Shown here in pieces: positions 3,134 through 56,807 of a stretch of 64,000 nt of DNA; the first letter of the stretch is position 1, and each line of letters opens with the position of its first letter. The stretch is from an uncultured Planctomycetota bacterium (GTDB lineage: Bacteria > Planctomycetota > Phycisphaerae > SM23-33): the NCBI GenBank assembly GCA_903892515.1, contig CAITIS010000001.1:13552-77551 (forward strand). The letters run 5' to 3'. The position numbers and the translations under genes were made by a program. A model generated the notes under the pieces. It was not told where the DNA came from. It was given only the letters and a program-made list of their open reading frames with translations, and did not search any database.

Positions 3134-5260
3134 ATGACCGCCCAGAACGCTGCAAGCTTTGAATCCTGCTACGCCAACTGGAGTGACAACCATATTACCG
3201 TAGGCAACGGCTTGATCGAACGCCGCTGGCGGATCGGCAACGGGCTGCTATTTGCCGAGTCGCTGCGGGATGTTGCCACGGGCCAGGAGTGGATCGCCCG
3301 CCCGGCGCGCCAACCGGCGCCGACACCGCCAGGGGCCTTACCTGAGGAACCGCGGGCGGTCTCCATTTCCTGGGAAGGCAATCAGGCCGGCCCGCTGCAA
3401 GTGGCATCATTGCAGGTGACGCTGCGTGCGACGGGTGAGTCCGCTTCGCTGCTGTATCATTTTCAGGTGTTTCCGCACTCCAGCGCGGTGACGATCAAGA
3501 TGGAAGTCCTCGGGCTCGTTGGCGACGCTCTGGGCGACGCTGGCGGCAGCGCGGCCGCCTCCAGTGGCATCGAGCTGGCCGACCTGCAGCGCAAGAGCAA
3601 GTCCAGCCTGCCGCCGGGCGACCTGCTGGAGACCCTGGACATCTCCCTGCCCCACCTTCGCCTCACGCAGGTGGAATTCCGCGACCAGAGCGACGACCAC
3701 AACGAGCTGGTGCTCACGCAGCAGTGGCTGTTGCACCCCAACGAACTGAACCTGCCCCTGCAGGGCAACCTGTTTGTGCTCGAGGATACGCTCAGCCACA
3801 CCGGCCTGATCTTTCTCAAGCACGCCCCGCTGCCGCACGCACGCCCCTGCCCATGCCGCACGGACTTTCTCGTCAATGGCCGAGCCGCCATGTTTCTCTC
3901 GCCCAAGCAGCCGCCATATGGCCCGACCCACCCGGATTTTCCGCTGGCGTATCAATTCGCTCTGTACGGCCACGGCCTGGCTGGCGCTGCGGGCGAGGGC
4001 TATGCCTGGACGATCGTCAGCTACTCAGGCGGCAGCGCGGGCATGACCGGGGCACTGCAAACGTATCAGCGCCAGTTCCGGCCCTACCGGAGTGGCCGCG
4101 ACGGCATCTTCCTGTCCAACACCTGGGGCGATCGCAGCCAGGACTCGCGAATCAACGAGACCTTCATGCTCGCGGAGGTCCAGGCCGCCGCCAAGTTGGG
4201 CGTGGACGTGGTGCAGATTGACGACGGCTGGCAGAAAGGCCGAACCGCCAATTCCGTCCACGGCGGCGTGTGGATCGGATACTGGGCGAACGATGCGGAG
4301 TTTTGGAAGGTCGATCCGGTCCGGCTGCCCCATGGCCTGGAGCCGCTGGTGTCGGAGGCAAGAAAGCTCGGTATGCAGTTCGGCCTGTGGTTTGGCCCGG
4401 ACTCAGCCGATGACTTCGCCAACTGGCAGCGCGACGCGGCGGTTCTGCTCGACTACCACCGCCGGCTGGGCATCAACTATTTCAAGATCGACGGTGTGAA
4501 GGCCCGAACCAGGCTGGGCGAACAGAACCTGCACCGGTTCTTCGACAAGGTGCTGCGCGACTCCGCCGGGGCCGTCACGTTTGATTTCGACATCACGGCC
4601 GAGACCCGCCCGAGCTACTTCAGCCTGATGGAAACCGGGCCGCTGTTCGTGGAGAATCGGTACACCGACTTCCGCCGCTACTGGCCGCATCACACGCTCC
4701 GCACGCTGTGGCGGCTTGCGCAGTACATCGACCCGCTCCGACTCCGCATGGAGTTTCTCAACACCGCCCGCCATCAGAACCTGTACAGCGGCGACCCGCT
4801 GGCCCCGGAGGCATACCGGCCGGAGTACCTGTTTGCATCGCTGATGTTCTGCAGCCCGCTGGGGTGGTTTGAGGCCTCCAATCTGCCGGCGGCGTACTCT
4901 GAGCAGGTCGGCCCGCTGGCGAGCATCTGGAAAACACACCGCGACGGAATCTTCGGCGGCTCGATCCTGCCCCTCGGAGATGAGCCTTCGGGCACGGGCT
5001 GGACGGGCTTTGCTTCCATCTCGCCGGATCGCCGAGGCGGCCACCTGCTGCTGCTGCGGGAATGCAACGACTCGCCGCGGCACGTGTACGAGTTGGGCGA
5101 ACTGGCCGGATCGGATTGTGGGAACCTGCCGTGTGAAGTGCTGGCCGGCCACGGCTCGGCCAGTTTCCGCAACGGCCAAGTCGAAGCCACTATTCCGAAC
5201 AGCCTCGATTATCTGCTGATCCGGTTCGGCGGGGATGATGGCGCCGACCGAGCCGGGTGA
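3134..5260 (+). CDS. Alpha-galactosidase-like glycoside hydrolase (GH36/GH27 clan GH-D)
   Basis: Motif VDVVQIDDGWQ (DDGW) and nucleophile-type motif YFKIDGV; 708 aa; no obvious signal peptide. Confidence 0.55.
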   Translation: MTAQNAASFESCYANWSDNHITVGNGLIERRWRIGNGLLFAESLRDVATGQEWIARPARQPAPTPPGALPEEPRAVSISWEGNQAGPLQVASLQVTLRATGESASLLYHFQVFPHSSAVTIKMEVLGLVGDALGDAGGSAAASSGIELADLQRKSKSSLPPGDLLETLDISLPHLRLTQVEFRDQSDDHNELVLTQQWLLHPNELNLPLQGNLFVLEDTLSHTGLIFLKHAPLPHARPCPCRTDFLVNGRAAMFLSPKQPPYGPTHPDFPLAYQFALYGHGLAGAAGEGYAWTIVSYSGGSAGMTGALQTYQRQFRPYRSGRDGIFLSNTWGDRSQDSRINETFMLAEVQAAAKLGVDVVQIDDGWQKGRTANSVHGGVWIGYWANDAEFWKVDPVRLPHGLEPLVSEARKLGMQFGLWFGPDSADDFANWQRDAAVLLDYHRRLGINYFKIDGVKARTRLGEQNLHRFFDKVLRDSAGAVTFDFDITAETRPSYFSLMETGPLFVENRYTDFRRYWPHHTLRTLWRLAQYIDPLRLRMEFLNTARHQNLYSGDPLAPEAYRPEYLFASLMFCSPLGWFEASNLPAAYSEQVGPLASIWKTHRDGIFGGSILPLGDEPSGTGWTGFASISPDRRGGHLLLLRECNDSPRHVYELGELAGSDCGNLPCEVLAGHGSASFRNGQVEATIPNSLDYLLIRFGGDDGADRAG

Positions 5261-5296
5261 TGAAACCGCTTCCCGCCGCCGACAATGAATACAGCT

Positions 5297-5404
5297 GGCT
5301 TCATAACCGTAGCACGGGCGTCCCGCCCGTGACTGAGCACCGTAAAGACGGCCGAAAAGCTCATGGGCGAGACGCCCATGCTACGTTGTGAAACCAGTTC
5401 TAGG
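5297..5404. mobile_element. MITE-like element copy A (terminal inverted repeats related to GGTTTCATAACC / GGTTATGAAACC, internal GC hairpins)
   Basis: About 75% identical to the element at 55063-55190; contains hairpins CACGGGCGTCCCGCCCGTG and CATGGGCGAGACGCCCATG; lies in a convergent intergenic region. Confidence 0.5.
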
Positions 5405-7045: not shown

Positions 7046-7858
7046 ATGCTGTTGAGTGCAAGAAAGTTGGAACACTTCACGCTCCGCGCGTTTGACGGCG
7101 AGATCGGCAAGGTGCATGACTTCCTGTTCGAGGACAATCAATGGTTGCTGCGCTACATGGTGGCCGACACGCGACGCTGGCTGCCCGGCCGGCAGGTGCT
7201 GATTGCCCCGGCCTCGCTGGGTGAGCCCGAACTGACGAATCGCGACTTGCCCGTGTCGCTCAGTATCGACCAACTCCGCAACAGCCCCGGAATCGAGACG
7301 GACCGGCCCGTGTCGCGGCAATTGGAAGGCGACTTGAGCACCTACTATGGCTGGCCCATGTACTGGTATGGCCCCTCAGCCATCGGCGCTGGCGCCATGC
7401 CCGAGCCCATGTCCGGCCTGCCGATTCCGGGCGCGATGGGCCATGCGACCGACCCGTATCGAATGGAACCCGCTTCGGCGTCGGCCTCGGCCACAGCCAC
7501 CATAGAGCCCGAAACGGGCGACCCGCATCTGCGCAGCATGCGTGAGCTGGTTGGCTACCGAATCGCTGCCACGGATGGCGACATTGGGCACCTTGACGAT
7601 TTCCTGCTGGAGACGAAGAGTTGGGCGGTGCGCTACCTAGTCGTGGACATCCGAAACTGGCTGCCCGGCCGAAAAGTTCTGGTGGCCCCGCCGTGGATCA
7701 GCCGGTTCGTCTGGGAAAAAGCCAAGGTGCATGTGGACCTGCCGCGTGAACTCATCCGCACGGCCCCGGAGTTTGACCCCAATGCGCCCGTCGCGCGAGA
7801 GTACGAAGATGCCCTGCATCGGCACTACGACCGCGACCGGTACTGGGACGATTTCTAG
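7046..7858 (+). CDS. Tandem PRC-barrel domain protein
   Basis: Two repeats of a PRC-barrel-like segment (FDGEIGKVHDFLFEDNQW...RYMVADTRRWLPGRQVLIAP and ATDGDIGHLDDFLLETKSW...RYLVVDIRNWLPGRKVLVAP); the ORF-track start at 6959 lies inside the repeat array, so the ATG at 7046 is preferred. Confidence 0.5.
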   Translation: MLLSARKLEHFTLRAFDGEIGKVHDFLFEDNQWLLRYMVADTRRWLPGRQVLIAPASLGEPELTNRDLPVSLSIDQLRNSPGIETDRPVSRQLEGDLSTYYGWPMYWYGPSAIGAGAMPEPMSGLPIPGAMGHATDPYRMEPASASASATATIEPETGDPHLRSMRELVGYRIAATDGDIGHLDDFLLETKSWAVRYLVVDIRNWLPGRKVLVAPPWISRFVWEKAKVHVDLPRELIRTAPEFDPNAPVAREYEDALHRHYDRDRYWDDF

Positions 7859-7865
7859 GAGGTTT

Positions 7866-7900
7866 GCCCCGTGGCACAGCCGCCCCGGGCTGTGCTCTTT
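7866..7900 (+). terminator. REP-like terminator hairpin (CCCGTGGCACAGCCGCCCnnGGCTGTG + T-tract), copy 1
   Basis: 8 nt after the PRC-barrel stop; stem CACAGCC/GGCTGTG followed by CTCTTTGG. Confidence 0.55.
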
Positions 7901-8472: not shown

Positions 8473-8506
8473 CCTACGCCCTACGCCCTATGCCCTACGC
8501 CCTACC
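8473..8506. repeat. Heptamer tandem array (TACGCCC)x5
   Basis: CCTACGCCCTACGCCCTATGCCCTACGCCCTACC immediately downstream of the GT2 stop. Confidence 0.7.
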
Positions 8507-13259: not shown

Positions 13260-13612
13260 TTAGTCGCCCAAGGCGTGCAGAACCTTGGCGATGAAGCCGC
13301 GACGGAGGCTGAACTTCAAACTCCTCTTCCTTCGGGAGCGGTCCGCCTTCAGGCGGGGTGAGGGGCGGAGTTGCCAAGCGGCCCTCACCCGACCCTCTCC
13401 CACAGGGAGAGGAGTACAGAAGCATGGCCGCCGGCTCTGCGCTGGGGTGGCGCAGCTGTGCCGGCAAAGCTGCTTGCACGGGGGCTGCCTCGGCGGTACG
13501 ATGGCTCTTTCGCATCTGCCCGTGAAGCGCACCACGACAGGTGAAACCCCGTAGTGTTCAGCAGAGTGTCGAGCCCGCCGGGCCGATCCACAGTTAGAGG
13601 AGTTGTAACACG

Positions 13613-15499
13613 ATGAGTTGCGAGAGAGTTCCGGTGGCCGTATTTGAGGATTCCAAGGCCGCGTCCGTGGCCGTCGCCCGCCGCATCGCCGAGATCATGC
13701 GAGCCAAGGCTGCCGAAGGCAAGAACGCCGTGCTGGGCCTGGCCACCGGCCACACGCCCGTGGCCGTATACGCCGAGTTGATCCGCCTGCACAAAGAGGA
13801 AGGCCTGGACTTCTCCAACGTCGTGACCTTCAACCTCGACGAGTACTGGCCCATCGCTCCGAGCGTCATGCAGAGCTACTGGGCATGGATGCACGAGCAT
13901 CTGTTCAACCACGTGAACGTCAAGCCCGAGAACATCCACATTCCGCCCGGCGAGGTGAAGGAAGCTGAAATCGCCAAGCTCTGCCGCCAGTACGAGCACA
14001 ACATCACCAAGGCCGGCGGCATCGACCTGCAGATCCTGGGCATCGGGCTGTCGGGACACATCGGCTTTAACGAGCCCGGCTCGGCGCGCGACAGCCGCAC
14101 GCGCCGCATCGTGCTGGACCGCGTGACCCGCAAGGCCGCCGCCAGCGACTTCTTCGGCGAGGAGAACGTCCCGTCCATGGCCATCACCATGGGCGTGGGC
14201 ACCATCCTGGACGCCCGCGAGATTTGCCTGCTGGCCTTCGGCGAGCACAAGGCCTCCATCGTGCAGCGTTCCGTCGAGGGCGAGATCAACGCGACCATCG
14301 CGGCCACGTACCTGCAAAAGCACCCTAACGCGAAGTTCTACCTCGACGACGCCGCGGCCGCCCGGCTGACGCGCTTCGAGACGCCCTGGGAAATGGGCTC
14401 CTGCCAGTGGGATGACATGCTGGAACGCCACGCGGTGATCTGGCTTGCCCGGAAGGTGAACAAGGCCGTCCTGCGGCTGACGGACGAAGATTACGTCGAG
14501 CACGGGCTGGGCGAACTGCGGGCCCGCGGCGGCGCGTACGACATCAACCTCAAGGTCTTCCGCTACCTGATGAACACCATCACGGGCTGGCCGGCGGGCA
14601 AGAGCAAGAAGCGGCGCGTGCTGATCTTCAGCCCGCACCCCGACGACGACGTGATCTGCATGGCCGGCACGATGACCCGCCTGGTCGAACAGGGCCACGA
14701 AGTGCACGTGGCGTACATGGTCAGCGGCTACCTGAGCGTGTTCGACCACGACGTGTCGCGCTACGCCGACTTCGTGCGCGAGTTCAACAAGATCTTCGGC
14801 GTCATGCCCGAACAGTCGGCCACCATCGAGCAGCACATCGACAAGTTCCTCAAGCAGAAGAGGCCCGGCGACATCGACACCACGGAAATCCAGTCGCTCA
14901 AGGGCCTGATCCGCCGGGCCGAGGCCATCGACGCCGCCAAGTACTGCGGCATCGAGGAGAGCCGCTGCCACTTCCTGGACATGCCCTTCTACAACACCGG
15001 CAAGGTGCAGAAGCTGTCGATCGGCGAGGCCGACATCTCGGCCGTGCGCAAGGTGCTCGAGACCGTCAAGCCGGACATGATCTTTGCCGCCGGCGACCTG
15101 TCCGACCCGCATGGCACGCACCGGCTGTGCGGCGAGGCGGGGTTCATCGCACTGGATCAGTACCTTGCCGCCGGCAACGCCAAGCCGGAGCTGTGGCTGT
15201 ATCGCGGCGCGTGGCAGGAGTGGAGCCCCGAGCAGATTTCCATGGCCGTGCCGCTCTCGCCCGATGAACTCAAGAGCAAGCGGTTCGCCATCTTCCGCCA
15301 CCAGAGCCAGAAGGACCGCGCCATGTTCCCGGGCCCCTTCGACAGCCGCGAGTTCTGGCAGCGGGCCGAGGAACGCAACATCTCCACCGCCAAGCTGTAC
15401 GACGATCTGGGCCTGCCGGAATACCACGCCATGGAGGCCTTCGCCGTCTGGCCGCTGAAGCGTCCAGCCAACCACGATCAGCAGATGACGAAGATATAG
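13613..15499 (+). CDS. nagB: Glucosamine-6-phosphate deaminase (NagB) fused to LmbE/PIG-L-family deacetylase domain
   Basis: N-term NagB motifs (GLATGHTP, FNLDEY, GIGLSGHIGFNEPGS); C-term PIG-L motif VLIFSPHPDDDVICMAGT. Confidence 0.8.
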   Translation: MSCERVPVAVFEDSKAASVAVARRIAEIMRAKAAEGKNAVLGLATGHTPVAVYAELIRLHKEEGLDFSNVVTFNLDEYWPIAPSVMQSYWAWMHEHLFNHVNVKPENIHIPPGEVKEAEIAKLCRQYEHNITKAGGIDLQILGIGLSGHIGFNEPGSARDSRTRRIVLDRVTRKAAASDFFGEENVPSMAITMGVGTILDAREICLLAFGEHKASIVQRSVEGEINATIAATYLQKHPNAKFYLDDAAAARLTRFETPWEMGSCQWDDMLERHAVIWLARKVNKAVLRLTDEDYVEHGLGELRARGGAYDINLKVFRYLMNTITGWPAGKSKKRRVLIFSPHPDDDVICMAGTMTRLVEQGHEVHVAYMVSGYLSVFDHDVSRYADFVREFNKIFGVMPEQSATIEQHIDKFLKQKRPGDIDTTEIQSLKGLIRRAEAIDAAKYCGIEESRCHFLDMPFYNTGKVQKLSIGEADISAVRKVLETVKPDMIFAAGDLSDPHGTHRLCGEAGFIALDQYLAAGNAKPELWLYRGAWQEWSPEQISMAVPLSPDELKSKRFAIFRHQSQKDRAMFPGPFDSREFWQRAEERNISTAKLYDDLGLPEYHAMEAFAVWPLKRPANHDQQMTKI

Positions 15500-15536
15500 G
15501 GCGTAGGGCGTAGGGCGTAGGGCGTAGGGCGTAGGG
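15498..15536. repeat. Heptamer tandem array (GGGCGTA)x5
   Basis: Overlaps the nagB stop codon. Confidence 0.75.
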
Positions 15537-15697
15537 AAAAACAAGACTGGGCCACAGAGACGCAGAGGGCTCAGAGAAGACAAGATTTCAATGCGGCGCG
15601 TGTGCAACTGGTTGTACGCGCGCCGGATGGTTGTGTACCACGACAGTCCGTAGGCTGGGCCGAGGAATTCTTTCCGAGGCCCACCTTCGGCGTCCCG

Positions 15698-15741
15698 GCT
15701 TCCCGCTTCCCGATTCCCGCTTCCCGATTCCCGCTTCCCGT
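15698..15741. repeat. Heptamer tandem array (TTCCCGN)x6
   Basis: CTTCCCGCTTCCCGATTCCCGCTTCCCGATTCCCGCTTCCCG. Confidence 0.75.
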
Positions 15742-16337: not shown

Positions 16338-17798
16338 ATGCGGCTGACACCTCAGGGCGTGCGTTGCCTCAGCGAAAGCGAAATCCAGGCCATCGTCGAT
16401 ACGTCGCTGAACATCCTCGACGAGATCGGCATGATCATCGAGAGCCCGTTCATCTGCCAGCGCTTCGTCGAGGCCGGGGCCGCGTGGGACGGGCAAACCC
16501 GTCTGAAGTTCCCGCGCTCGCTCATGCGGCGGTACATCGAGTCGCAGCGGCGCGAGAATTTCCCCGCGCCCGTGCCGCGCGAACCGCACGTGGGCGGCAG
16601 CATCGGCAGCTACCCGATGCGGTACCTCGACCCCTACGACCGCACCATCAAGCTGCACACCGCCCGCAGCGTGGCCGACCTGACCCGCCTGGCCGACGCC
16701 GTGCCCAACATCGATGGCATCGGCTCGTGCGGCGTGCCGTCGGACATCTCGCCGCTGCTCCAGCCGCTGTGGATGCGGTTTATTTCCTGGCGGTACGCCG
16801 AGAAGCTCTCCAACTCCTACGTGCTGTGGGATCACCGGCTTTGCCCGCTGATCGCCGAGTTCGCCGAGACGGTCTCGGCCATGGAACCGCAGAACGGCGG
16901 CGTGAAGCGGTACTTCCGCGGCGAGAACTACATCATCACCCCGCTGCGGTATGCCCGCGAAGAGGCCCTGCAATTCGAGTGGTTCTACCAGCACGGCTAC
17001 CGGGTGACAGTGGGCAACTTGCCGTCCATCGGCGGCTCGGCGCCCAGCACGATGGCCGGCGCGGTGGCGCTGGGGTTGGCGGAGTCGCTGGTCATCAACT
17101 TCTGGCAACACGTGTTCTATGGCGACAAGGGCCTGTACGTGGCGTGTGCGATTCCGCCGCTGGACATGCGCACCGGCTGCATGCCCTACGGGAGGCCGGA
17201 GCAGACGCTGACGGCCCTGGCCATGTCGCAGATCGCCGATGCCATCGGCGCGCTGGATACCGGCAGCACCGGCCACGGCACGGCCGCCAAGGGCCCCAAC
17301 ATCGAGGCCGGGCTCAACAAGGGTTTTGGGGCCGGCATGCAACTGGCCCTGTTCGGCGACGTTGACTGGCACTTCGGCATCTTCAGCACCGACGAAATCT
17401 ACGACCCGCGGCTGATCCTGATCGAGAACGAGTTCGTGGACAGCCTGCGTCGCATCAGCCGGGGCTTTGAGGTGACGCCCGAGACGCTGGCGTACGACGT
17501 GATTCGCGAGGTCGGCGCCGGCGGGCAGTTCCTCTCGCACCCGCACACGCACGAGCACTTCCGCCAGGAACTGTGGCTGCCCGACTTGTTTAATGGCATG
17601 TATATGGAAGGCTGGATGGCCGCCGGCAGGCCGGAGATTTTAGAGCGGGCTCGGGACAAGGTGCTGGATATCCTGGCCAGCCACCACCCGCGCGGCATCA
17701 AGCCCGAGACGGAAGAAGCGTTGCTCTCGCTGATGGACAAGTACGCCGCCGAGCTGAACCTGACGGACTACGTCCGGCCAACAGATTTGCCAAAGTAG
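16338..17798 (+). CDS. MttB-superfamily (trimethylamine/glycine-betaine-type) corrinoid methyltransferase homolog, no in-frame amber codon
   Basis: 486 aa, the length and N-terminal pattern (LSESEIQAIVDTSLNILDEIGM) of the MttB family; uninterrupted ORF, so a non-pyrrolysine member. Confidence 0.55.
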   Translation: MRLTPQGVRCLSESEIQAIVDTSLNILDEIGMIIESPFICQRFVEAGAAWDGQTRLKFPRSLMRRYIESQRRENFPAPVPREPHVGGSIGSYPMRYLDPYDRTIKLHTARSVADLTRLADAVPNIDGIGSCGVPSDISPLLQPLWMRFISWRYAEKLSNSYVLWDHRLCPLIAEFAETVSAMEPQNGGVKRYFRGENYIITPLRYAREEALQFEWFYQHGYRVTVGNLPSIGGSAPSTMAGAVALGLAESLVINFWQHVFYGDKGLYVACAIPPLDMRTGCMPYGRPEQTLTALAMSQIADAIGALDTGSTGHGTAAKGPNIEAGLNKGFGAGMQLALFGDVDWHFGIFSTDEIYDPRLILIENEFVDSLRRISRGFEVTPETLAYDVIREVGAGGQFLSHPHTHEHFRQELWLPDLFNGMYMEGWMAAGRPEILERARDKVLDILASHHPRGIKPETEEALLSLMDKYAAELNLTDYVRPTDLPK

Positions 17799-17814
17799 AG
17801 TTGACCGCGCGGCC

Positions 17815-17849
17815 GGTTGGCCCCGTGGCAAAGCCGCCCTCGGCTGTGC
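17815..17849 (+). terminator. REP-like terminator hairpin, copy 2
   Basis: GGCCCCGTGGCAAAGCCGCCCTCGGCTGTGCG, 17 nt after the MttB stop. Confidence 0.55.
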
Positions 17850-17859
17850 GAACCAGCGT

Positions 17860-17912
17860 TTTCACGGGTCCGTCTTCACGGGTCCGTTTTCACGGGTCCG
17901 TTTTCACGGGTG
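17860..17912. repeat. 13-mer tandem array (TTCACGGGTCCGT)x4
   Basis: Direct tandem copies between convergent MttB and lon. Confidence 0.7.
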
Positions 17913-23315: not shown

Positions 23316-26300
23316 TCATCGATCCTGCGTATCCCTTGTATCCCTGCGAACCTTGGGCCACAAACCGACGGCTATCAAAGTCAGCAAGGCGGCCGCCTGC
23401 ACGTACACCAGGCCCACAACAACCGTTGAGGCCGCCAGCGGCTCGGGCGGCTGCGAGGCCACCAAGCCCAATAGATCGGCCTTGACGCCGGTTTTTCCTG
23501 AGACGAGCTTGGGCGAAGGCGCCGCCTGAGCCCAGAACTCACCCTCTGCCGGTGCGGCGGCGAGCACGTCGCGGCGAAGGTCGATCGCCTCATCCCACCG
23601 CAGCCTCTCCATCGCGGTGGCCGAATCGGGCTCGACGGTTACACGCTCGGGCCTCCAGTGCGGCCCCTGGACCCGCAAGTTTTCGTAGATGTGCACCGGC
23701 AGATCGTCGGAGTGGATGGCCGGCAGCCCGTCGGGCGTCAGGTCGTGATAGATGGCCGAGGGCCCCGCGTGGCCACTGGACGCCGTGGCCACGGCACCCG
23801 GCTGAGAAGCTGCGGCCCCGACCGACATGTCGTTCCCGCTTCCCGACTCCCGATTCCCGATTCCCGACTCCCGATTCCCGCTTCCCGATTCCAGATTCCC
23901 GCTTCCCGCCGGTATCTCCCGTAACTGGACGTTGCGAATCTCTACCGCCCCGCGACTGGTCGTGGCCAGCAGGAACAACCCCGCCTCTTTCGCGCCCATA
24001 AAGAGCTGCCCAACGTGCCGCCACGTCGGCGTAAGCTGCTCGGCGGACAGCCGGATTCGCGACTGGAACTCCCGCCACCAGGCTTGCCCCAGCCCTGGCC
24101 GCCAGCCGCCGATAAAGACATTGTCAGCCCCGTGCGGCGCGCGAATGTCCATATCGATCCGGTACAGGCCATCCTCCAGCGTCACTGGCCAGGTCTTCAC
24201 GTCGGCATTATTGGCAGCGCTGGCTTGGAGCGTGATCTCCCCTACCGCCGGCAGCAGGTTTGCCCCCGGCTGGGCCAGGGGCCACTGCGCCGACTCTATG
24301 ACCTGGCGATACACCGGGTCGGCCGCCAGGACGTAGCGGACGTCAAAGAGGCTCAGCAGCCGGTTGTCGCGGATGAGCCACTGCCAGAAGCAGTTCTCGC
24401 CCCAGGGCTCAAAGCCAAACATTCTGGCGTGTTCCAGCGGTTGCAGCGGGCCGTAGTAGGAAATGCTGGCGATGCCGAACAAGGCTGAGCAGTTGGGCAG
24501 CAGCAGTTCCGCCGGCCGATGATGGTAGTCGCGCGAAAGTCCCCACACACGGAACGGTTGGCCAGCGGCGTGCTGGGCCAGCCAGGCAGCGGCTGGGGAG
24601 ACCTCCGGGTCGATCCGCTTGTCCGGCGGCGGGACGTCGACGAACCGACAGAGGATAAACAGGTCCAGCAGCAACAGCGGCAGGAGAATCAGCAGGCGTC
24701 TGTCTGAACGGCCAGGCACACTAACTATGGGTGCCACACCTGCGGCGTTTGCAGGTGTGCTGTCACGCACGGCTGCAGACTCCGCAGCCGTGGCACCCGG
24801 CGATGTAGAATCTGGTTCTTTCGTAGCACAGCCGCCCTCGGCTGTGGTCTTTTGTTCTTTCGTAGCACAGCCGCCCTCGGCTGTGGTCTTTTCCGCGGGC
24901 GATACTCCCGTGGCCCGACCAAGCGCAATCACCGTCAGCGCCAGCAGCGCCACCGGCACGTAGAAGGCCGGGCTTTTCCATTCCAGCGCTTGCTGCACCG
25001 ACTGCGCCACCGAGTGCGGCACGTTCAGCACCGGCGCCATCGCTTCCAACCGGCCGGTGCGGGCGGCCATTAGCAGTCCCAGCGACAGCAGGCACATTAC
25101 CCCGGCCAGGAAGATGCAGACCTTGCTGAGCGTTAGTTTCCAGGCCTCGTCGCGGCGGATGAGCCACCAGTGCATGCCGATGGCCGAGAGCGCCGCCAAG
25201 GCCAGGTCGAGCGTCAGCACCATCCTGGCCGGGCAGCGAACCTTGCCCAGCACCGGCAGCCAGTACATCAGCCGGTACGTCGGCAGGTATCCGCCCAGCA
25301 TCCAGACGAACGCCCCGGCGCCCAGCCACACCCACAGCCGCACCAGGGGCCCCAGCGGACCGGCCTGCTGCTCTTGCCGCCGCCGATACAACGCCAGCAC
25401 GGCCGCTGCCGCCAGGATCAGCGTGATCAGCCCGACGTAGCCCAGCATCTCGCACTGGTGCCACGGCCCCCACCACTTTTGACTGAAGAAGTTGGGGTCG
25501 CGATTGCCCAGCAAGAACGGGAACAACGCCAGCACGGTTGAGAGCGGGAAGAAGGAGTTCTCGATGGCGGTGGAATACGCCAAGCCCGCGCGGAAGGTCG
25601 CTTGCATGCCCAGCATCGTGACATATATCTGGCTGGCCATAAGCAGGCCTGCCAGCACGCCAGCTGCCAGCGCCGCGGGGATCGCGAACTTCAAAGGCCT
25701 TCCACGCACGAGCAGGTACACGCCGATGGGCAGACTCATCTGGATCACCGTCGGCCAATGACCTGCCGCCAGGGCCAGCGCCATCGCCCCAGCCAGCACC
25801 GCCAGGCCACGACGGACGCCCGCGTGCCACTGCGCGCGCTGGTTCGGGTGCCACTGCTGCGGCGTGTGCAGCAGTGTGGTTACAGCCGCGACCGACTTTG
25901 GCCGCATCAGTTCGATGCCCAGCAGAGCCCACGGCAGCAGGCCGGCAGTCTGGATGACGCCCAGGTGCACGCGGTGGCCGACCATGAAGCCGCAGAACAT
26001 GAACACGATGGCGCCGAACGCCCCGGCCTCGTCACGCAGCCCCAGCCGGCGCAGGTACACGAACGCCCCCACGCCGGCCGTGCCAAAGGCCAGGAACAGG
26101 CACAGGCTGTACGCCAGTTTCGCGGGCAAGGCCACGAAGAGCCAGTTGGGCGGAAAGAACACGCTGGATTGCGGGTCGGCCATCAGCGACGTGCCGGTGG
26201 CCGAAAATGGGTTCCACAGTGGCAGGTGGCCTTGCCGCAGCGCATCGGCCGTCAGCACGCGCACGGGATAAAAGAAGACGACGTCATCCTCGCCGGCCGA

Positions 26301-26381
26301 CGTGGGATCGGTCCACAGCGGGTACAGCATTCCCGCCGGCAGCAGGACGAGCAACAGAATGGTTAGCCAAGGGCGTGGCAT
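23316..26381 (-). CDS. YfhO-family large polytopic membrane protein (GT-C-like) carrying in-frame copies of two genome repeat families
   Basis: About 14 N-terminal TM helices, a large extracytoplasmic C-domain and a terminal TM; internal repeats TTAEGGCATKEQK x2 and GSGNRES x4 are encoded by the REP and TTCCCGN repeats. Confidence 0.55.
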   Translation of the reverse strand: MPRPWLTILLLVLLPAGMLYPLWTDPTSAGEDDVVFFYPVRVLTADALRQGHLPLWNPFSATGTSLMADPQSSVFFPPNWLFVALPAKLAYSLCLFLAFGTAGVGAFVYLRRLGLRDEAGAFGAIVFMFCGFMVGHRVHLGVIQTAGLLPWALLGIELMRPKSVAAVTTLLHTPQQWHPNQRAQWHAGVRRGLAVLAGAMALALAAGHWPTVIQMSLPIGVYLLVRGRPLKFAIPAALAAGVLAGLLMASQIYVTMLGMQATFRAGLAYSTAIENSFFPLSTVLALFPFLLGNRDPNFFSQKWWGPWHQCEMLGYVGLITLILAAAAVLALYRRRQEQQAGPLGPLVRLWVWLGAGAFVWMLGGYLPTYRLMYWLPVLGKVRCPARMVLTLDLALAALSAIGMHWWLIRRDEAWKLTLSKVCIFLAGVMCLLSLGLLMAARTGRLEAMAPVLNVPHSVAQSVQQALEWKSPAFYVPVALLALTVIALGRATGVSPAEKTTAEGGCATKEQKTTAEGGCATKEPDSTSPGATAAESAAVRDSTPANAAGVAPIVSVPGRSDRRLLILLPLLLLDLFILCRFVDVPPPDKRIDPEVSPAAAWLAQHAAGQPFRVWGLSRDYHHRPAELLLPNCSALFGIASISYYGPLQPLEHARMFGFEPWGENCFWQWLIRDNRLLSLFDVRYVLAADPVYRQVIESAQWPLAQPGANLLPAVGEITLQASAANNADVKTWPVTLEDGLYRIDMDIRAPHGADNVFIGGWRPGLGQAWWREFQSRIRLSAEQLTPTWRHVGQLFMGAKEAGLFLLATTSRGAVEIRNVQLREIPAGSGNLESGSGNRESGIGNRESGSGNDMSVGAAASQPGAVATASSGHAGPSAIYHDLTPDGLPAIHSDDLPVHIYENLRVQGPHWRPERVTVEPDSATAMERLRWDEAIDLRRDVLAAAPAEGEFWAQAAPSPKLVSGKTGVKADLLGLVASQPPEPLAASTVVVGLVYVQAAALLTLIAVGLWPKVRRDTRDTQDR
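23832..23909. repeat. TTCCCGN heptamer array (about 11 units) inside the YfhO-like CDS, in frame (encodes GSGNRES repeats)
   Basis: Same repeat family as 15698-15741 and 28441-28516. Confidence 0.75.
24815..24893. repeat. Two tandem REP-like hairpin units (TTCTTTCGTAGCACAGCCGCCCTCGGCTGTGGTCTTTTG) inside the YfhO-like CDS, in frame
   Basis: Identical 40-mer units also occur at 46141-46215. Confidence 0.75.
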
Positions 26382-26387
26382 GGTGGT

Positions 26388-26468
26388 TCGTGAATCCGTT
26401 TACTCGTGAATTCGTTGATCCGTTAATTCGTTAATTCGTTAACTCGTGAATCCGTTGAATTCGCTCAT
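26388..26468. repeat. Degenerate tandem repeats of CGTGAATCCGTT / AATTCGTTA upstream of the YfhO-like gene
   Basis: GGTTCGTGAATCCGTTTACTCGTGAATTCGTTGATCCGTTAATTCGTTAATTCGTTAACTCGTGAATCCGTTGAATTCG. Confidence 0.6.
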
Positions 26469-27538: not shown

Positions 27539-27565
27539 AGGGCGTAGGGCATAGGGCGTAGGGGC
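27539..27565. repeat. Heptamer array (GGGCGTA/GGGCATA)x3
   Basis: Immediately upstream of the MtaA-like start. Confidence 0.6.
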
Positions 27566-28341: not shown

Positions 28342-28440
28342 ACGGGGCCGGTGAAGTGGCCCGTTGCGATGCTTGAACAAGAAAGGCTGGCAGGTCAGGA
28401 GACCCGCCAGCCCTTTTGATTGAGGTAATCGCCGTCCTCC

Positions 28441-28516
28441 GGCTTCCCGATTCCCGCTTCCCGAATCCCGCTTCCGGCTTGCCCGAATCCCGATTCCCGT
28501 TTTCCCGATTCCCGGC
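28441..28516. repeat. TTCCCGN heptamer array
   Basis: GGCTTCCCGATTCCCGCTTCCCGAATCCCGCTTCCGGCTTGCCCGAATCCCGATTCCCGTTTTCCCGATTCCCGG. Confidence 0.7.
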
Positions 28517-28524
28517 TTCTCCCG

Positions 28525-29904: not shown

Positions 29905-29976
29905 GAACTTCTCCGATCAAGCCAGGCGAGGCCTTCGGTCCACAGGCCCGCAGCAGAAAGAAGGGCGAAAGACAGG

Positions 29977-30057
29977 GTGTAGGTCGTAGGGCGTAGGGCG
30001 TAGGGAAATACGCCAAACCGCCGCGTCTCTTCCCTACGCCCTATGCCCTACGCCCTT
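29977..30057. terminator. Long hairpin built from inverted GGGCGTA heptamer arrays (stem ~20 bp, loop ~25 nt)
   Basis: GTAGGTCGTAGGGCGTAGGGCGTAGGGAAATACGCCAAACCGCCGCGTCTCTTCCCTACGCCCTATGCCCTACGCCC, downstream of the sensor kinase stop. Confidence 0.55.
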
Positions 30058-36495: not shown

Positions 36496-39378
36496 ATGAT
36501 GCATCGGATTGAAGTTCGGTTGCGTTCGGAGTTGCCCGACCCCCAAGCCCAGGCCGTGCTGCTGCAGGTGGCAGAGCTGGGCATACATAGTGCGCGCGAA
36601 GTGCAGACCGCCCGGCTGTTCTTCCTGGCCGGCGAGCTGAGTGAGGCCGACCTCGACCGCGTGGCCCGCGAGCTGCTGGCCGACCCGGTCACCGAGACGT
36701 ACAGCCTCGCCGACGACGATGGCCAGGGCGAGGGCAAGGTCATCGAGGTGCACCTGAAGGCCGGCGTGATGGACCCGGTGGCGGCATCGACGCTCAAGGC
36801 CATTTGCGACATGGGCTTTGCCGTTGCAGCCGTCCGCACCGCCCGGCGGTACGAGTTCCACGGCCAGGTCGGCCAGGACCAACTGGCCACCATCGCCCGG
36901 AGGCTGCTGGCCAACGATTGCATCGAGGACGCCCACTTCGCCGCGTACACGCCGCCTGAATCGCACGCGGGCCAGTACCAGCTCGTGGTCCACGAGATCG
37001 CCATCCGCCAGCTTGACGACGCGGCTCTGGAGAAGCTCAGCAGCGATCGCGACCTGTTCCTCAACCTCACCGAGATGCGGACCATCCAGGAGCACTATCG
37101 CAAGCTGGGGCGCGAGCCGCGCGACGTGGAGATCGAGACCTTCGCCCAGACCTGGAGCGAGCACTGCGGCCACAAGACCTTCCGCTCCGACGTGTCGGTC
37201 CGCGACGAACGCGGCCGGCAGGTCGAGGAGATTCCCAACCTCATCAAGAGCACCATCTTTGCGGCCACGCAGAAACTGAACAAGCCCTGGTGCATCAGCG
37301 TGTTCAAGGACAACGCCGGCGTCATCGAGTTCGACGAGCAAAACGCCGTGTGCTTCAAGGTCGAGACGCACAACCACCCCAGCGCGCTGGACCCTTACGG
37401 CGGAGCGGGCACGGGCATCGGCGGGGTCATTCGCGACCCCATGGGCACGGGCATGGGCGCCTTTCCCGTGGCCAATACCGACATTTTCTGCTTTGGCCCG
37501 GCAGACCTGCCGATGGAGCAGCTGCCCAAGGGCGTGCTGCATCCGCGGCGAATCATGCGCGGCGTGGTGGCGGGCGTGCGCGATTATGGCAATCGCATGG
37601 GCATCCCCACGGTCAACGGCGCGGTGTACTTCGACGAAAAGTACGTCGGCAACCCGCTGGTCTTCTGCGGCACGGTGGGCGTGCTGCCGCGGAGCATGTG
37701 CTTTAAGGAAGTAAAGCAGGGCGACGCCATCGTGGTCGTGGGCGGCAGGACTGGCCGCGACGGCATCCACGGCGCGACCTTCTCATCCGGCGAGCTGACG
37801 CACGAGCACGAGACGGAATTCTCCGGCGCGGTGCAGATCGGCAACGCCATCACCGAAAAGAAGACGCTCGACACGATCATCCAGACGCGCGATTCGGGGC
37901 TGTACAACGCCATCACCGACTGCGGCGCGGGCGGCCTGTCCAGCGCCGTCGGCGAGATGGGCGAGGAGATCGGCGCCGAGGTGCATCTGGATCGCGTGCC
38001 GCTCAAGTACGCCGGGCTGAGCTATTGGGAAATCTGGGAATCCGAGGCGCAGGAGCGGATGGTCCTGGCCGTACCGCAGGAAAAGGTGCAGGAAATACTG
38101 CGCGTATTCGCCTCCGAGGACGTCGAGGCCACCGTCATCGGCCACTTCGGCACGCCCGAAAAGCAGCTGCGGCTCTTCTACACCGGCACGCTGGTGGGTG
38201 AGATCGACATGCGTTTCCTGCACGACGGCCTGCCCCGGCCAACCAAGGACGCCCTGTGGCAGAAACCCGAGCGGAAGAGCCCGACCGTCCGGGCCGTGCG
38301 CAACTACACCAAGATGCTGCTGAAGGTGCTGGGCTCACCTAACGTCGCCAGCAAGGAATGGATCATTCGCCAGTACGATCACGAGGTGCAGGGCGGCAGC
38401 GTCATCAAGCCGCTCATCGGCGTGACGGGCGATGGCCCCTCCGACGCGGCCGTGCTGCGACCCATCCTGTCCAGCCGGCGTGCCGTCGTGCTGGCGTGCG
38501 GCATGAACCCGCGATTGGGAGACCTGGACCCGTACCAGTCGGCCCTGCACGCCATCGACGAGGCGCTGCGGAATATCGTCTGCGTCGGCGGCGATCTTTC
38601 ACGCACGGCCATTCTGGACAACTTCTGCTGGGGCAACTGCAACAAACCCGACCGCATGGGCTCGCTGGTGCAGGCGGCCAAGGCATGCTACGACGGCGCC
38701 CTGGCGTACGGCACGCCGTTCATCTCGGGCAAGGACTCGCTCAACAACGAATTCCAGACCGAAACCGGCCAGACCATCGCCATCCCGCCGACGCTGTTGA
38801 TCTCGGCCATCAGCGTGATCGCCGACGCGGGCAAGTGCGTCTCGGCCGATCTGAAGCAGGCCGGCAACGTGGTCTTCGTGCTGGGCACCACCACGGCCCA
38901 CCTGGGCGGCAGCCACTTCCTGCTGGCATCGGGCAAGGAAACCGGCACGGACGTCCCGCCGGTCGATACGGTCGGTTCGCGGCGGATCATGGAAGCCGTG
39001 CAGCACGCCATCGCTGATGGGCTGGTGCGGAGTTGTCACGATCTGTCCGAGGGCGGCCTGGCGGTCGCGGCGGCAGAGATGGCGTTTTCGGGTGGGCTGG
39101 GGCTGAGCCTGGAAATCAGCGAAATGCCCGCCACCGGCAAGGTACCCGCACAGGCTCGGCTGTTCGCCGAGAACGCCGGGCGATTCCTCGTCGAGGTGTC
39201 TGCGGCCAAGGCGGAAGAGTTTGCCGCCCGCATGGAAGACCTGGCCTGCGGCCAAGTGGGCAAAGTGACCGACACCGGCCGGCTGTTCATCACGGCCCAG
39301 GGCGATGCGGTGGTCGATGTGGAAATCGCCAAGGCCAAGGCGGCTTGGAAGGGTTCTTTGAACCACAAAGAGCACTAA
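36496..39378 (+). CDS. purL: Phosphoribosylformylglycinamidine synthase subunit PurL with N-terminal PurS-like domain (PurS-PurL fusion)
   Basis: PurL motifs (THNHPSALDPYGGAGTGIGGVIRD); N-terminal ~90 aa resemble PurS; the C-terminal codons are formed by the downstream repeat. Confidence 0.9.
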   Translation: MMHRIEVRLRSELPDPQAQAVLLQVAELGIHSAREVQTARLFFLAGELSEADLDRVARELLADPVTETYSLADDDGQGEGKVIEVHLKAGVMDPVAASTLKAICDMGFAVAAVRTARRYEFHGQVGQDQLATIARRLLANDCIEDAHFAAYTPPESHAGQYQLVVHEIAIRQLDDAALEKLSSDRDLFLNLTEMRTIQEHYRKLGREPRDVEIETFAQTWSEHCGHKTFRSDVSVRDERGRQVEEIPNLIKSTIFAATQKLNKPWCISVFKDNAGVIEFDEQNAVCFKVETHNHPSALDPYGGAGTGIGGVIRDPMGTGMGAFPVANTDIFCFGPADLPMEQLPKGVLHPRRIMRGVVAGVRDYGNRMGIPTVNGAVYFDEKYVGNPLVFCGTVGVLPRSMCFKEVKQGDAIVVVGGRTGRDGIHGATFSSGELTHEHETEFSGAVQIGNAITEKKTLDTIIQTRDSGLYNAITDCGAGGLSSAVGEMGEEIGAEVHLDRVPLKYAGLSYWEIWESEAQERMVLAVPQEKVQEILRVFASEDVEATVIGHFGTPEKQLRLFYTGTLVGEIDMRFLHDGLPRPTKDALWQKPERKSPTVRAVRNYTKMLLKVLGSPNVASKEWIIRQYDHEVQGGSVIKPLIGVTGDGPSDAAVLRPILSSRRAVVLACGMNPRLGDLDPYQSALHAIDEALRNIVCVGGDLSRTAILDNFCWGNCNKPDRMGSLVQAAKACYDGALAYGTPFISGKDSLNNEFQTETGQTIAIPPTLLISAISVIADAGKCVSADLKQAGNVVFVLGTTTAHLGGSHFLLASGKETGTDVPPVDTVGSRRIMEAVQHAIADGLVRSCHDLSEGGLAVAAAEMAFSGGLGLSLEISEMPATGKVPAQARLFAENAGRFLVEVSAAKAEEFAARMEDLACGQVGKVTDTGRLFITAQGDAVVDVEIAKAKAAWKGSLNHKEH

Positions 39379-39560
39379 GAGAAGAACCACAAAGGGCACA
39401 AAGAGAAGACTTGCACAGCAGCAAGAGAAGAACCACAAAGGGCACAAAGAGAAGACTTACACAGCGGCAAGAAGAAGAACTCAAAGGCCACAAAGAGAGA
39501 CCAGGCCAAGAATAAGCCAAGCTGCAGGGTACAACGAGAAGAACAGAGACGACACAAAGA
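39361..39560. repeat. 46-bp tandem repeat (~2.5 units) rich in CCACAAAGGGCACAAAGAG
   Basis: Starts inside the last purL codons; no unique spacers, so not CRISPR. Confidence 0.7.
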
Positions 39561-40785: not shown

Positions 40786-40866
40786 GGCCCCGTGGCAGCT
40801 CGGCGAACCCGTGGCGCAGCCCGCGGCCGAACCCGTGGCACAGCCGCCCTGGGCTGTGGCTTTTGC
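40786..40866 (+). terminator. REP-like hairpin cluster (3 degenerate units), copy 3
   Basis: CCCCGTGGCAGCTCGGCGAA / CCCGTGGCGCAGCCCGCGGCCGAA / CCCGTGGCACAGCCGCCCTGGGCTGTGGCTTTTG, 21 nt after the purQ stop. Confidence 0.5.
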
Positions 40867-40890
40867 GGCCATATCGATGTCCTCTCGCGC

Positions 40891-40936
40891 GGTTTCACGC
40901 CCGAGGGCGGACGTACCACGATTATGAAACCAGTTC
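40891..40936. mobile_element. MITE-like element fragment (GGTTTCAC...ATTATGAAACC)
   Basis: Shares termini and the GCCCGAGGGCGG hairpin with 55063-55190. Confidence 0.4.
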
Positions 40937-45840: not shown

Positions 45841-46056
45841 ATGACCCAGCAGAAATATGCTCTGTATTGTCCCAAGTGCGGGCGAGTCGAGGGCTTCGTG
45901 CCCGAGTCTTCGGATGAAGGCGGCGATGACGGCATCGGCGAGGCCGATGAGGTGATCTCTGAAGAGGTCGTGCGAACGCCCTCGGGAACAAGCCTCCGAG
46001 TGCGCTGCCCGCGCTGCGGCGGCTGGGTCAAGGGAGACCGCGTCAGGCCCGTGTAA
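45841..46056 (+). CDS. Small zinc-ribbon protein
   Basis: Two CxxC pairs (CPKCG ... CPRCGG) around an acidic linker. Confidence 0.3.
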   Translation: MTQQKYALYCPKCGRVEGFVPESSDEGGDDGIGEADEVISEEVVRTPSGTSLRVRCPRCGGWVKGDRVRPV

Positions 46057-46100
46057 GGCTGCGCCCACGAGGGCTCAGGCCGGAGCCGGTTCATAACCTG

Positions 46101-46215
46101 GCTCGCCCCGTGGCACAGCCGCCCCCGGCTGTGAACTTTGCTTCTTTCGTAGCACAGCCGCCCTCGGCTGTGGTCTTTGCTTCTTTCGTAGCACAGCCGC
46201 CCTCGGCTGTGGACT
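46101..46215 (+). terminator. REP-like hairpin array (3 units), copy 4
   Basis: Units 2 and 3 are identical to the 40-mers at 24815-24893; the array lies ~45 nt after the zinc-ribbon gene stop. Confidence 0.6.
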
Positions 46216-46251
46216 TGGCGGCCCCGTCGACGTCTGCTCGCGCGACTCAGC

Positions 46252-54869: not shown

Positions 54870-55062
54870 ATCTGGTCTCTTTTATAAATAGATTGACCAT
54901 AGCCGTTATCGGCCCATCCGTAAGCCCTTGCATGTTACTCCGTTACGGTGCTGCCTGGTCATGTACGCGCGAGCGACACAGCCTACGAGTCCCGCAATTG
55001 CCACCTTCTTTCTGTCCGGTCTTCCTGCCGGATGCGCTGGGCGTCCCCGTGCCTTCAAGTGC

Positions 55063-55190
55063 GGTTTCATAACCGTGGCACGCCCGCCCTCGGGCGTGAG
55101 ACCGCCGAAAGGCATCGATATGACTGCAAAAGCCACAGCCGGGAGCGGCTGTGCCACGGGTGAAACCGGTTATGAAACCGGTTCTAGAAG
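55063..55190. mobile_element. MITE-like element copy B with 12-bp terminal inverted repeats GGTTTCATAACC / GGTTATGAAACC
   Basis: Perfect TIRs; internal hairpins GCCCGCCCTCGGGCG and CCACAGCCGGGAGCGGCTGTG; the right end overlaps the stop of the hybrid HK gene. Confidence 0.55.
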
Positions 55191-56807
55191 CTTCTTAACC
55201 GTTTCGGTCAGCGTCTGCGAACTGAATGGCTTGACCAGCAGGTTCACTTCGGACGCGAGCACGCCGCGGTTGGACAGGGCCTTGCCGGTGTAGCCGGAAA
55301 TATACAGGACCGGCATGTCTGGCTTGTGCTGACGTATCGCAGCCGCGACTTCCGGGCCGCCAATGCCCGGCATGACGACGTCGCAGATCAGCAGGTCGAT
55401 CTTCCAATTCCGCCGCTCGCTCAACTGCAAGCCCTCGGACAGGTTCGCCGCGGCCAGGACCGTGAAGCCGCATTCGCGCAGCGTCTGTGACACCACGCTG
55501 CAAATGGCGGCCTCGTCCTCAACCAGCAGAAGGGTTGCGGTTCCCGTCGGCAGCGTCAGGAGCGTCTGTGCGGCACCAGCCGGCGCGGGTTCTTCCGCGA
55601 CCCGTGGCAGATAGATCGTGAACGTCGCGCCGCGTCCGGGCTCACTGTCGACGGCGATGTACCCGCCGCTCTGCTTGACGAAGCCATACACCATGGACAG
55701 CCCCAAGCCGGTGCCGTATCCCGGGGGCTTGGTCGTAAAGAGCGGTTCGAAGATGTGCCTCAGAGTCTCCCGGTCCATGCCCAGTCCCGTGTCCGTGACC
55801 GTGGCCATCACATGGGCCCCGGCCGTCGCGCCGGGATGTCGCCGAACGAAGCTCGCGGACAGGTTGACATTGGCCGTGGCGATGCTCAGATCTCCGCCCT
55901 GGGGCATGGCATCGCGTGCATTCACAATCAGATTCATCAGGGCCTGTTCGAACTGGCCCCTGTCCACCTTGACATGGCCCAGGTCGGCCGAGGGAAGCAG
56001 CGACAGCTTGACGTCCTCGCCCAGCATGCGCGCCAGCGACTTGAACATGTCGTATATCGCGGTATTGAGATTCAGCACCTCGGGCCTGAGCGCATGTTTC
56101 CGGGTAAAGACCAGCAGATGCTCGGACATGGTGGCCGAACGATCCACCGCTGCCAGGATTTCGCGCGTGCATTCCAGGCCTTCTTCATCGATGAGCTTGC
56201 GGCGGATGAGCATCTCGGTGAAGCCCTTGATCACGGTCAGCTGGTTGCGGAAATCGTGGGCGATGCCGCCCGCCAGCAAGCCGATGGCTTCCATCTTCTG
56301 GGCCTGAATGAATTGCTGCTCGAGCTTGCGTCGTTCGGTCACGTCCGTCATGACCAGTTGGGTGGCCTTCTGACCGTGATAGGTGATCGGCCAGCCGGAG
56401 ATCTCCACGTGGCGCAGGCGTCCATTCAGGCTCTTTACGGTCTCGTCGGCGCCCCGAGAGTGCGTGCCCGGATGGGCGGGCTTGCGGATCGCCTCCAGCA
56501 CAGCGGCGTGGCGATCGGCCGCGGGGATGAAGCCCAGCAGGCTCCGGCCGATGAGGTCGCTTCGCCGGGCGGCGCCCAGCAGCTTGATCCCGGCGGGATT
56601 GCTGTATATGCAACGGTTGTCGGCATCGGCCACCAGGATGGCGTCTTGGGCCATCTCAACCAGGGCGAGGTAGCGCTGCTCGCTGTCGCGCAAGGCATCT
56701 TCGGCGCCGAGCTTGTCCCCCACGATGAGCAGCCGTAGAGGCTCACTCGCCATGCCGTCGTTGGGACTAGTGGCATCCATGACACCCACTGCACACATCT
56801 CTTTCAT
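55170..56807 (-). CDS. Hybrid sensor histidine kinase (PAS-HisKA-HATPase-REC)
   Basis: H-box HDFRNQLTVI; C-terminal REC (LLLVEDE...DVVMPGIGG...KPF). Confidence 0.8.
   Translation of the reverse strand: MKEMCAVGVMDATSPNDGMASEPLRLLIVGDKLGAEDALRDSEQRYLALVEMAQDAILVADADNRCIYSNPAGIKLLGAARRSDLIGRSLLGFIPAADRHAAVLEAIRKPAHPGTHSRGADETVKSLNGRLRHVEISGWPITYHGQKATQLVMTDVTERRKLEQQFIQAQKMEAIGLLAGGIAHDFRNQLTVIKGFTEMLIRRKLIDEEGLECTREILAAVDRSATMSEHLLVFTRKHALRPEVLNLNTAIYDMFKSLARMLGEDVKLSLLPSADLGHVKVDRGQFEQALMNLIVNARDAMPQGGDLSIATANVNLSASFVRRHPGATAGAHVMATVTDTGLGMDRETLRHIFEPLFTTKPPGYGTGLGLSMVYGFVKQSGGYIAVDSEPGRGATFTIYLPRVAEEPAPAGAAQTLLTLPTGTATLLLVEDEAAICSVVSQTLRECGFTVLAAANLSEGLQLSERRNWKIDLLICDVVMPGIGGPEVAAAIRQHKPDMPVLYISGYTGKALSNRGVLASEVNLLVKPFSSQTLTETVKKLLEPVS

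Follow-up and report, generated by a model that had tools for sequence, protein, structure and literature searches.

GTAG-type REPs, as described in the accessible part of the survey by Di Nocera, De Gregorio and Rocco 2013 (PMC3733652), are hairpins with stems of 5-13 bp and loops of 2-20 nt that carry an unpaired GTAG tag (GTRG or GTGG in some families), and they divide into subfamilies with alternative complementary stem residues. They form head-to-head dimers, with the tags outside and conserved spacers of 20-100 bp; they are mostly extragenic, lying downstream of ORFs and between convergent or unidirectional ORFs, with some units intragenic; they are found in the PVC superphylum; they are dispersed in tens to thousands of copies per genome; and they are associated with a RAYT gene that is flanked by like REPs. 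For one family, GTAG-19 of the verrucomicrobium Opitutus terrae, the same part of the survey gives the peptides encoded by intragenic REPs as HGRDARAT, GTGVPPV and TGGTPVPR. In Pseudomonas fluorescens, REPs occur as REPINs, inverted pairs separated by a short spacer that fold into one long hairpin (Bertels and Rainey 2011, PMC3116915; PMC3337134).

The repeats analyzed here lie in a 64-kb stretch of DNA (the window) from an uncultured, Phycisphaerae-like planctomycete that is present only in a few ENA metagenome assemblies. Three dimers in the window (copies A, B and C) and a fourth on an unlinked 1-kb contig of the same metagenome (L028) are probably lineage-specific GTAG-tagged REPs whose dimers have REPIN architecture. 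A preliminary description had read copy B as a MITE defined by GGTTTCATAACC TIRs. That reading was right in spirit, in that this is a small non-autonomous repeat family, and wrong as to class: the family is real, but it is another member of the long-known GTAG-REP/REPIN kind. By analogy with the accessible part of PMC3733652, all GTAG-REP traits that are testable here appear to be present, and a RAYT partner of the REPs is presumed. On this assignment the catalogue of GTAG-type REPs and REPIN-like elements now reaches an uncultured Phycisphaerae-like planctomycete.

Anatomy of the repeat unit

The basic REP unit is ~55-60 nt long and reads, in order, 5' flank (CTAG)AACYGGTTTSNNCC, unpaired GTRG tag, 8-bp stem with a 3-4-nt loop, and T-rich tail (usually GCTTTTGC or GTCTTTTG). 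The stem is GC-rich, of the form CAC-NNN-CG. Units stand alone, in 39-bp tandem arrays, within an ORF and in inverted pairs. An alignment of all hairpins with a GTRG tag, 13 in the 64-kb window and 3 more on L028 (n = 16), has GT[A/G]G abutting the stem in every unit (16/16), with A or G as the third tag base; its invariant columns are C-G-T and the fourth G, and the 5' flank is common to the units.

Within this alignment 96.9% of stem cells are paired and four of the eight pairs have changed on both sides, yielding the stem variants AGC/GCT, GCC/GGC, GGG/CCC and CAT..ATG. The covariation score is 0.318 compared with 0.131 in shuffles, a value that none of 500 shuffles reaches, and sliding the partners by one to three columns drops pairing to 30-44%. 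The compensatory hairpin changes that were first proposed from copies A and B are, in short, real.

The 12-mer GGTTTCATAACC is the flank variant of the first hairpin of a dimer (module X); the second hairpin has a sister flank variant (module Y, CCGGTTTCACCC), and an extra X stands outside Y in B, in L028 and at the tandem locus D. At two or fewer mismatches the 12-mer has 10 sites in the window against 1.65 expected (0/100 shuffles reach 10). The heptamer GGTTTCA/TGAAACC also has 10 sites, 7 of them intergenic, the intergenic fraction of the window being 14%.

Head-to-head dimers

The dimers of the window are composed as follows.

Copy B, 55062..55187, + strand: REP heterodimer, head to head
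55062-55074: left flank X, CGGTTTCATAACC
55075-55098, + strand: REP1, GTGG + CACGCCCG/ccct/CGGGCGTG
55099-55133: spacer
55134-55157, - strand: REP2, CACAGCCG type
55158-55169: flank module Y
55168-55187: right module X, GGTTATGAAACCGGTTCTAG

Copy A, 5295..5403, + strand: REP homodimer, GGGCG stem type, head to head
Left flank: CTGGCTTCATAACC
5309-5331, + strand: REP1, GTAG CACGGGCG tcc CGCCCGTG
5332-5361: spacer
5362-5384, - strand: REP2, GTAG CATGGGCG tct CGCCCATG
5385-5403: right flank, CTAG at the end

Copy C, 40804..40936, - strand: REP heterodimer, orientation opposite to B
40835-40858, + strand: REP2
40859-40895: spacer
40896-40919, - strand: REP1
40920-40936: flank X, GATTATGAAACCAGTTC

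In copy B, GGTTTCATAACC occupies 55063-55074 and its exact reverse complement 55168-55179. The perfect 12-bp inverted repeat first described is genuine and actually extends over 14 bp (55062-55075 / 55167-55180); a role as a pair of element-defining TIRs is not supported. Copy B has an inverted repeat because two REP units stand head to head, and the TIR-like ends are the 5' flanks of those units. The same flank also precedes units outside dimers: the 12-mer is a variant of the flank found before each REP unit here, including solitary units (7871, 17825 and one on L028) and tandem ones (46110-46211, 24823-24885). The two GC hairpins noticed inside B (55079-55098 and 55134-55153) are there, each with GTGG 5' to it on its own strand. 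The right end had been placed at 55190; the right 12-mer stops at 55179 and the conserved right arm reaches 55187 (GGTTCTAG). This arm contains a 12-nt tandem module (TGAAACCGGTTA x1.9 by TRF), whose inner module Y is positioned like the single right-arm module of A.

Copies A and B had been put at about 75% identity, which agrees with the 78% found over aligned positions (63% over all columns); their alignment score is 67 compared with -9 +/- 8 in shuffles, ~9 sd higher. What had been taken for a fragment retaining both termini at 40891-40936 belongs to a near-complete minus-strand copy, C, which matches B at 88% identity across 101 nt (40831-40931, E = 1e-20), and the two motifs concerned both flank C's first hairpin only. 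At the far end of C (40804-40834) a 12-nt piece of the REP head is present three times in degenerate form (CGAACCCGTGGC), and the GGTGAAACC arm is missing. Spurious ORFs translating the elements, ...TPEGGRATVMKP and ...TPEGGRTTIMKP, are both present as reported, and REPs account for spurious short ORFs in such MAGs (...HGRDARATVMKP..., ...TPEGGRATVMKP...).

The fourth dimer, L028 296-428, was found through a protein search whose query joined the six-frame translations of A, B and C end to end; among 5.8 billion proteins the single match at E <= 10 (P0001) led to it. A 202-aa gene has been called across this dimer and is probably spurious.

All four dimers have their tags outside, spacers of 28-42 nt, and arms of 22-26 nt that are 76-88% complementary. 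They fold as long hairpins with z from -2.1 to -8.6 (B, -4.0 on the + strand and -4.2 on the - strand; A, -8.3 and -8.6). In three of the four (B, C and L028) the two units belong to different stem subfamilies, which makes these dimers heterodimers.

Strong and conserved secondary structure is also what a structured small-RNA gene or a cis-regulatory RNA family would have, and that reading is extremely improbable: units occur in either orientation, in tandem and within an ORF; A and B share no conserved structure beyond a single 8-bp stem; no promoter-like site is found at B; and Rfam 15 returns no match in the window at gathering thresholds. Membership of a known structured RNA family, a check set beforehand, finds no Rfam match in either gathering or E-value mode. 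The sole sub-threshold Rfam match at B, to the plant miRNA precursor MIR9666 (17.5 bits against a gathering threshold of 88, E = 0.56), is a generic hairpin.

The outer ends are where a true TIR-type MITE could be sought, that is, a discrete ~125-bp element with CTAGAACCGGTTTCATAACC ends that is cut and pasted by the DDE transposase of an unseen IS, its internal hairpins incidental and the solitary REP units decayed half-elements. This reading is unlikely. It draws on outer inverted repeats that are longer than a REP pair strictly needs (14 nt and perfect in B, 20 nt at 80% in L028), on an element that is small and non-coding, on entire copies, spacer included, at unrelated loci, and on the resemblance of locus D to a right arm; set against these are the absence of the right 12-mer and right arm from C, the weak ends of A, the left arms of A and B, which degenerate past GG, and the flank motif itself, which accompanies all solitary and tandem units in a fixed register to the GTRG tag. 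Conservation and covariation lie in the hairpin and tag, not in the ends, and neither a transposase in the window nor target-site duplications above chance (see below) come to its aid.

A related reading, also quite unlikely, is that the X-REP1-spacer-REP2-Y-X heterodimer (B, L028 and partly D) is a distinct composite mobile unit whose 20-nt ends, CTAGAACCGGTTTCATAACC, are recognized by a non-RAYT enzyme. Two other identities were rejected. In integron attC sites, which lie 3' in cassettes of common orientation, an imperfect palindrome is framed by RYYYAAC / GTTRRRY core sites; here TCATAAC / GTTATGA misfit that core consensus, and the neighbors are housekeeping genes, often convergent. An IHF site in the spacer, as in a RIP- or BIME-like element, was considered for L028, where ATCAATAAGG lacks the TTR part of WATCAANNNNTTR.

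Comparison with GTAG-19 and other GTAG REPs

To return to the REP assignment, the likeness to GTAG REPs as given in the accessible part of PMC3733652 extends to the unpaired GTAG/GTGG tag, the 8-bp GC stem with its short loop, the subfamilies with complementary stems, the head-to-head dimers, the intragenic units and the sites downstream of ORFs. The hairpin of copy A encodes HGRDARAT, STGVPPV and TGGTPV in three frames, so that two of the GTAG-19 peptide strings of Opitutus terrae in that source, HGRDARAT and TGGTPV, recur exactly and GTGVPPV recurs at 6/7 residues, a comparison of peptide strings and not of DNA. The match implies one 23-nt hairpin, GT(A/G)GCACGGGCGTCCCGCCCGTG, for copy A and for GTAG-19. 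A hairpin GT(A/G)G-CACGGGCG-TCC-CGCCCGTG that is apparently common to a planctomycete and a verrucomicrobium bears on the age of the REP lineage in the PVC superphylum.

The differences are these. The host of GTAG-19 is a verrucomicrobium, and the host here is a Planctomycetota (Phycisphaerae-like) MAG. The stems of B, C and L028, CACGCCCG and CACAGCCG, are not among the intragenic REP peptides in the accessible part of PMC3733652, whose text there also makes no mention of a conserved long 5' flank such as the (CTAG)AACYGGTTTCATAACC of the present family. That part of the paper singles out tail-to-tail dimers 1-2 bp apart for GTAG-19, whereas the dimers here are head to head with 28-42-nt spacers.

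Solitary, tandem and intragenic units

Outside the dimers, the window contains the following units.

46087..46216, + strand: locus D, flank modules X and Y followed by three tandem REP units
46087-46098: D module X, CGGTTCATAACC
46099-46109: D module Y (compare the right arm of B)
46110-46133, 46149-46172 and 46188-46211, + strand: D REP units, 39-bp period
24815..24892, + strand: unit pair E, two tandem 39-bp REPs with GTAG at 24823 and 24862
7853..7894, + strand: solitary REP unit F, flank CTAGGAGGTTTGCCCC, then GTGG CACAGCCG cccc GGGCTGTG
17811..17848, + strand: solitary REP unit G, flank CCGGTTGGCCCC, then GTGG CAAAGCCG ccct CGGCTGTG
5256..5267, - strand: orphan flank 12-mer GGTTTCATCACC, 1 mismatch, no hairpin beside it

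The terminus that had been seen fused to a REP unit at 46088 does stand before one (GGTTCATAACC, 46088-46098). Contig L024 (20592-20660; sample ERZ27313102) carries two units at D where the window (46109-46216) carries three, a clean 39-bp unit-number polymorphism, the remaining sequence being 99.98% identical.

Unit pair E lies in frame within the minus-strand ORF 23316-26381 and antisense to it, encoding KTTAEGGCATKEQ twice. The product of this ORF is a multi-pass membrane protein of 1021 aa with no Pfam match, and the KTTAEGGCATKEQ repeats form part of a hydrophilic linker. Elsewhere in the same ORF the heptamer TTCCCGA is repeated in frame (x10.9, 23833-23908) and is translated as SGNRESG-like repeats.

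The orphan flank at 5256-5267 (GGTGATGAAACC) overlaps the TGA stop of gene 3134-5260 and lies 29 nt ahead of copy A; a second hairpin-less flank motif, GGTGAAACCCCGTAGTG, is located at 13540-13560 in the intergenic region 13536-13612. Both may be decayed units. On L028, a solitary unit on the - strand (806-858, flank AACTGGCTTGCCCC) lies downstream of a gene whose protein has a PEP-CTERM-like tail at its end.

Copying, mobility and distribution

Copies B, C and L028 are 84-88% identical over arms and spacer and are situated at three unrelated loci. Their unstructured spacer (ATCGATATG ... GCAAAAGC) is common to all three, and the dimer has therefore been copied whole and has not evolved in place. 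In this the family is like the REPINs of Pseudomonas, in which the whole doublet, spacer included, is what is repeated and which are likewise non-coding, free of target-site duplications and lineage-specific (PMC3116915, PMC3337134). It is unlike them in having no cognate RAYT in the window, in showing no excision or insertion polymorphism at dimers B and C, and in that 3/4 of its dimers are heterodimers of two stem subfamilies.

Target-site duplications were sought at each copy, a check set in advance. The best flanking direct repeats are 3-5 nt long (with +/-6 nt slack), which is within the null provided by 2000 random position pairs (mode 3-4 nt), and no copy has a duplication above chance, an outcome that goes against the MITE reading. 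The TIR-MITEs Correia/NEMIS, RUP, ERIC and Nezha have target-site duplications and ends that match a parent IS. The present elements resemble them in size, in being non-coding, in their inverted termini and RNA folding, and in inserting beside genes and into gene ends; they differ in having no target-site duplication and in the nature of their inverted ends, which flank a hairpin unit that is repeated independently.

That the family is non-autonomous was correctly recognized from the start: its repeats are small, non-coding and hairpin-forming, and no transposase lies inside them. Pfam scanning of 43 of the 46 predicted ORFs finds neither transposase nor RAYT in the window (the three ORFs left out are short or overlap elements, and L024 gene calls were also used), and tblastn with seven published RAYT/TIRYT sequences against the window and the fetched loci yields only matches with E > 0.08. 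The repeats are probably copied in trans. By analogy with known RAYT systems, a single-copy RAYT (HUH/Y1) encoded elsewhere in the genome would act on the single-stranded hairpin and its GTRG tag; this enzyme would copy the whole dimer and leave no target-site duplication. Tandem units, for their part, gain and lose copies by slippage or recombination, as shown by the three and two units at D in different samples.

Between-sample comparison covers B, C and D. Among contigs that cover them in full, no presence/absence difference of dimers appears, B being identical in three contigs and C in two. A search with a covariance model built on the unit detects none in three contigs of related Planctomycetota (57.5 kb in all), against 13 in the 64-kb window, and the family looks lineage-specific. 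The PurL homologues with a named source come from Planctomycetota and Phycisphaerae MAGs; the nearest are 73-74% identical, with different gene neighbors and no REP units, and are too distant for an empty-site comparison. Homologues of the histidine kinase (HK) encoded next to B are absent between 51% and 100% identity, and the contig of an HK paralogue (L034) has no REP units. Scanning GTDB species representatives, a set to which the source genome does not belong, for GGYTTCATAAYCGTRGYAC gave 23 single matches in unrelated phyla, about the number expected by chance; scanning JGI metagenomes for the left arm and hairpin gave one AT-rich chance match.

Gene context, donated stop codons and a possible role as RNA

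The genes neighboring the repeats are housekeeping genes: PurL, PurQ, Lon, FolC-like and two-component systems. Ten of the 11 extragenic units of the window are in sense orientation and lie 12-181 nt past a same-strand stop codon. Convergent genes flank dimers A and C and locus D; the neighbors of B, the HK gene and a response-regulator gene downstream of it, are on the same strand (unidirectional). Unit F is 12 nt and unit G 26 nt past a stop codon, G following gene 16338-17798.

Two units donate a stop codon to the gene that they follow. Copy B, as the preliminary description had it, supplies the hybrid HK gene (55170-56807, - strand) with its last codons and its TAA stop (55170-55172, in the right-arm module X). 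The TAG stop of gene 6959-7858 lies in the CTAG of the flank of unit F. Since the flank holds TAG and TAA in two frames, insertion at the 3' end of a gene can donate a stop codon. Were the X-REP1-spacer-REP2-Y-X heterodimer a composite unit whose ends a non-RAYT enzyme recognizes, the TAG and TAA that it carries would enable it to target gene 3' ends, or to tolerate insertion there, and so to rewrite C-termini and stops; the hybrid HK gene and gene 6959-7858 are the two cases observed. Annotators should watch for REP-donated stop codons and for in-frame REP insertions.

As RNA, sense units after stop codons would form stable 3' hairpins that could be terminator-like or mRNA-stabilizing, and a dimer between convergent genes would provide one 3' hairpin for each gene. 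For E. coli REP/BIME elements, a role in mRNA stabilization and termination has been proposed. The likeness to those elements lies in extragenic palindromes with a GTAG tag at gene 3' ends that are single, inverted or clustered; sequence, stem length and loop are unrelated, and there is no sign here of gyrase, IHF or Pol I binding. By this analogy an RNA role of the units as 3' hairpins is plausible. The T tract after the hairpin is weak, however (4 T only), and a simple terminator and promoter scan detects no terminator and no promoter-like site at B.

The same placement could be explained by immobile hairpins, terminators or mRNA stabilizers kept by selection, whose likeness to one another would be convergence on one favored hairpin. 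Sense units shortly past stop codons with a T-rich tail, a stem preserved by compensatory changes, and dimers between convergent genes are what such hairpins would lead one to expect, but convergence is no explanation for the conservation of unstructured spacers and 20-nt flanks at unrelated loci. Taken together with the antisense units within an ORF, the 4-T tail and negative terminator scan at B, and the absence of the family from sampled loci of related genomes, this makes the explanation very unlikely.

Other repeats and assembly observations in the window

Directly 3' of solitary REP unit G is a 14-bp tandem array, CGTTTTCACGGGTC x3.9 (17857-17911), whose unit looks like the REP flank and head (GGTTTCACCCGTGG) except that CCC and GGG have traded places at the center. 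Between purL and a PD-(D/E)XK (GxxExxY) gene is a purine-rich tandem repeat with a 46-bp unit, AAGAGAAGAACCACAAAGGGCACAAAGAGAAGACTTACACAGCAGC x2.7 (39377-39498), which has one unit fewer in contig L031, from another sample. At ~45934-45950 the independent short-read assemblies L024 and L035 both stop, from opposite sides, within a small zinc-ribbon-like ORF that ends at 46056 and ~150 nt short of the D array; strain variation or a repeat-induced assembly break may account for it.

A second repeat system consists of many intergenic heptamer and octamer tandem arrays, among them:

15497-15536
8472-8505
29974-30056
27539-27563
6924-6965
6833-6856
15693-15740
28438-28519
26387-26463

Their motifs are TAGGGCG and its complement CCCTACG; ATGACCT and AGGTCGT; TTCCCGA and TTCCCGC; and TTCGTTAA. 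Several adjoin stop or start codons; gene 13613-15499, for example, has its stop codon in the first TAG of the array at 15497. The array site 29974-30056 consists of two opposed arrays that make a long hairpin.
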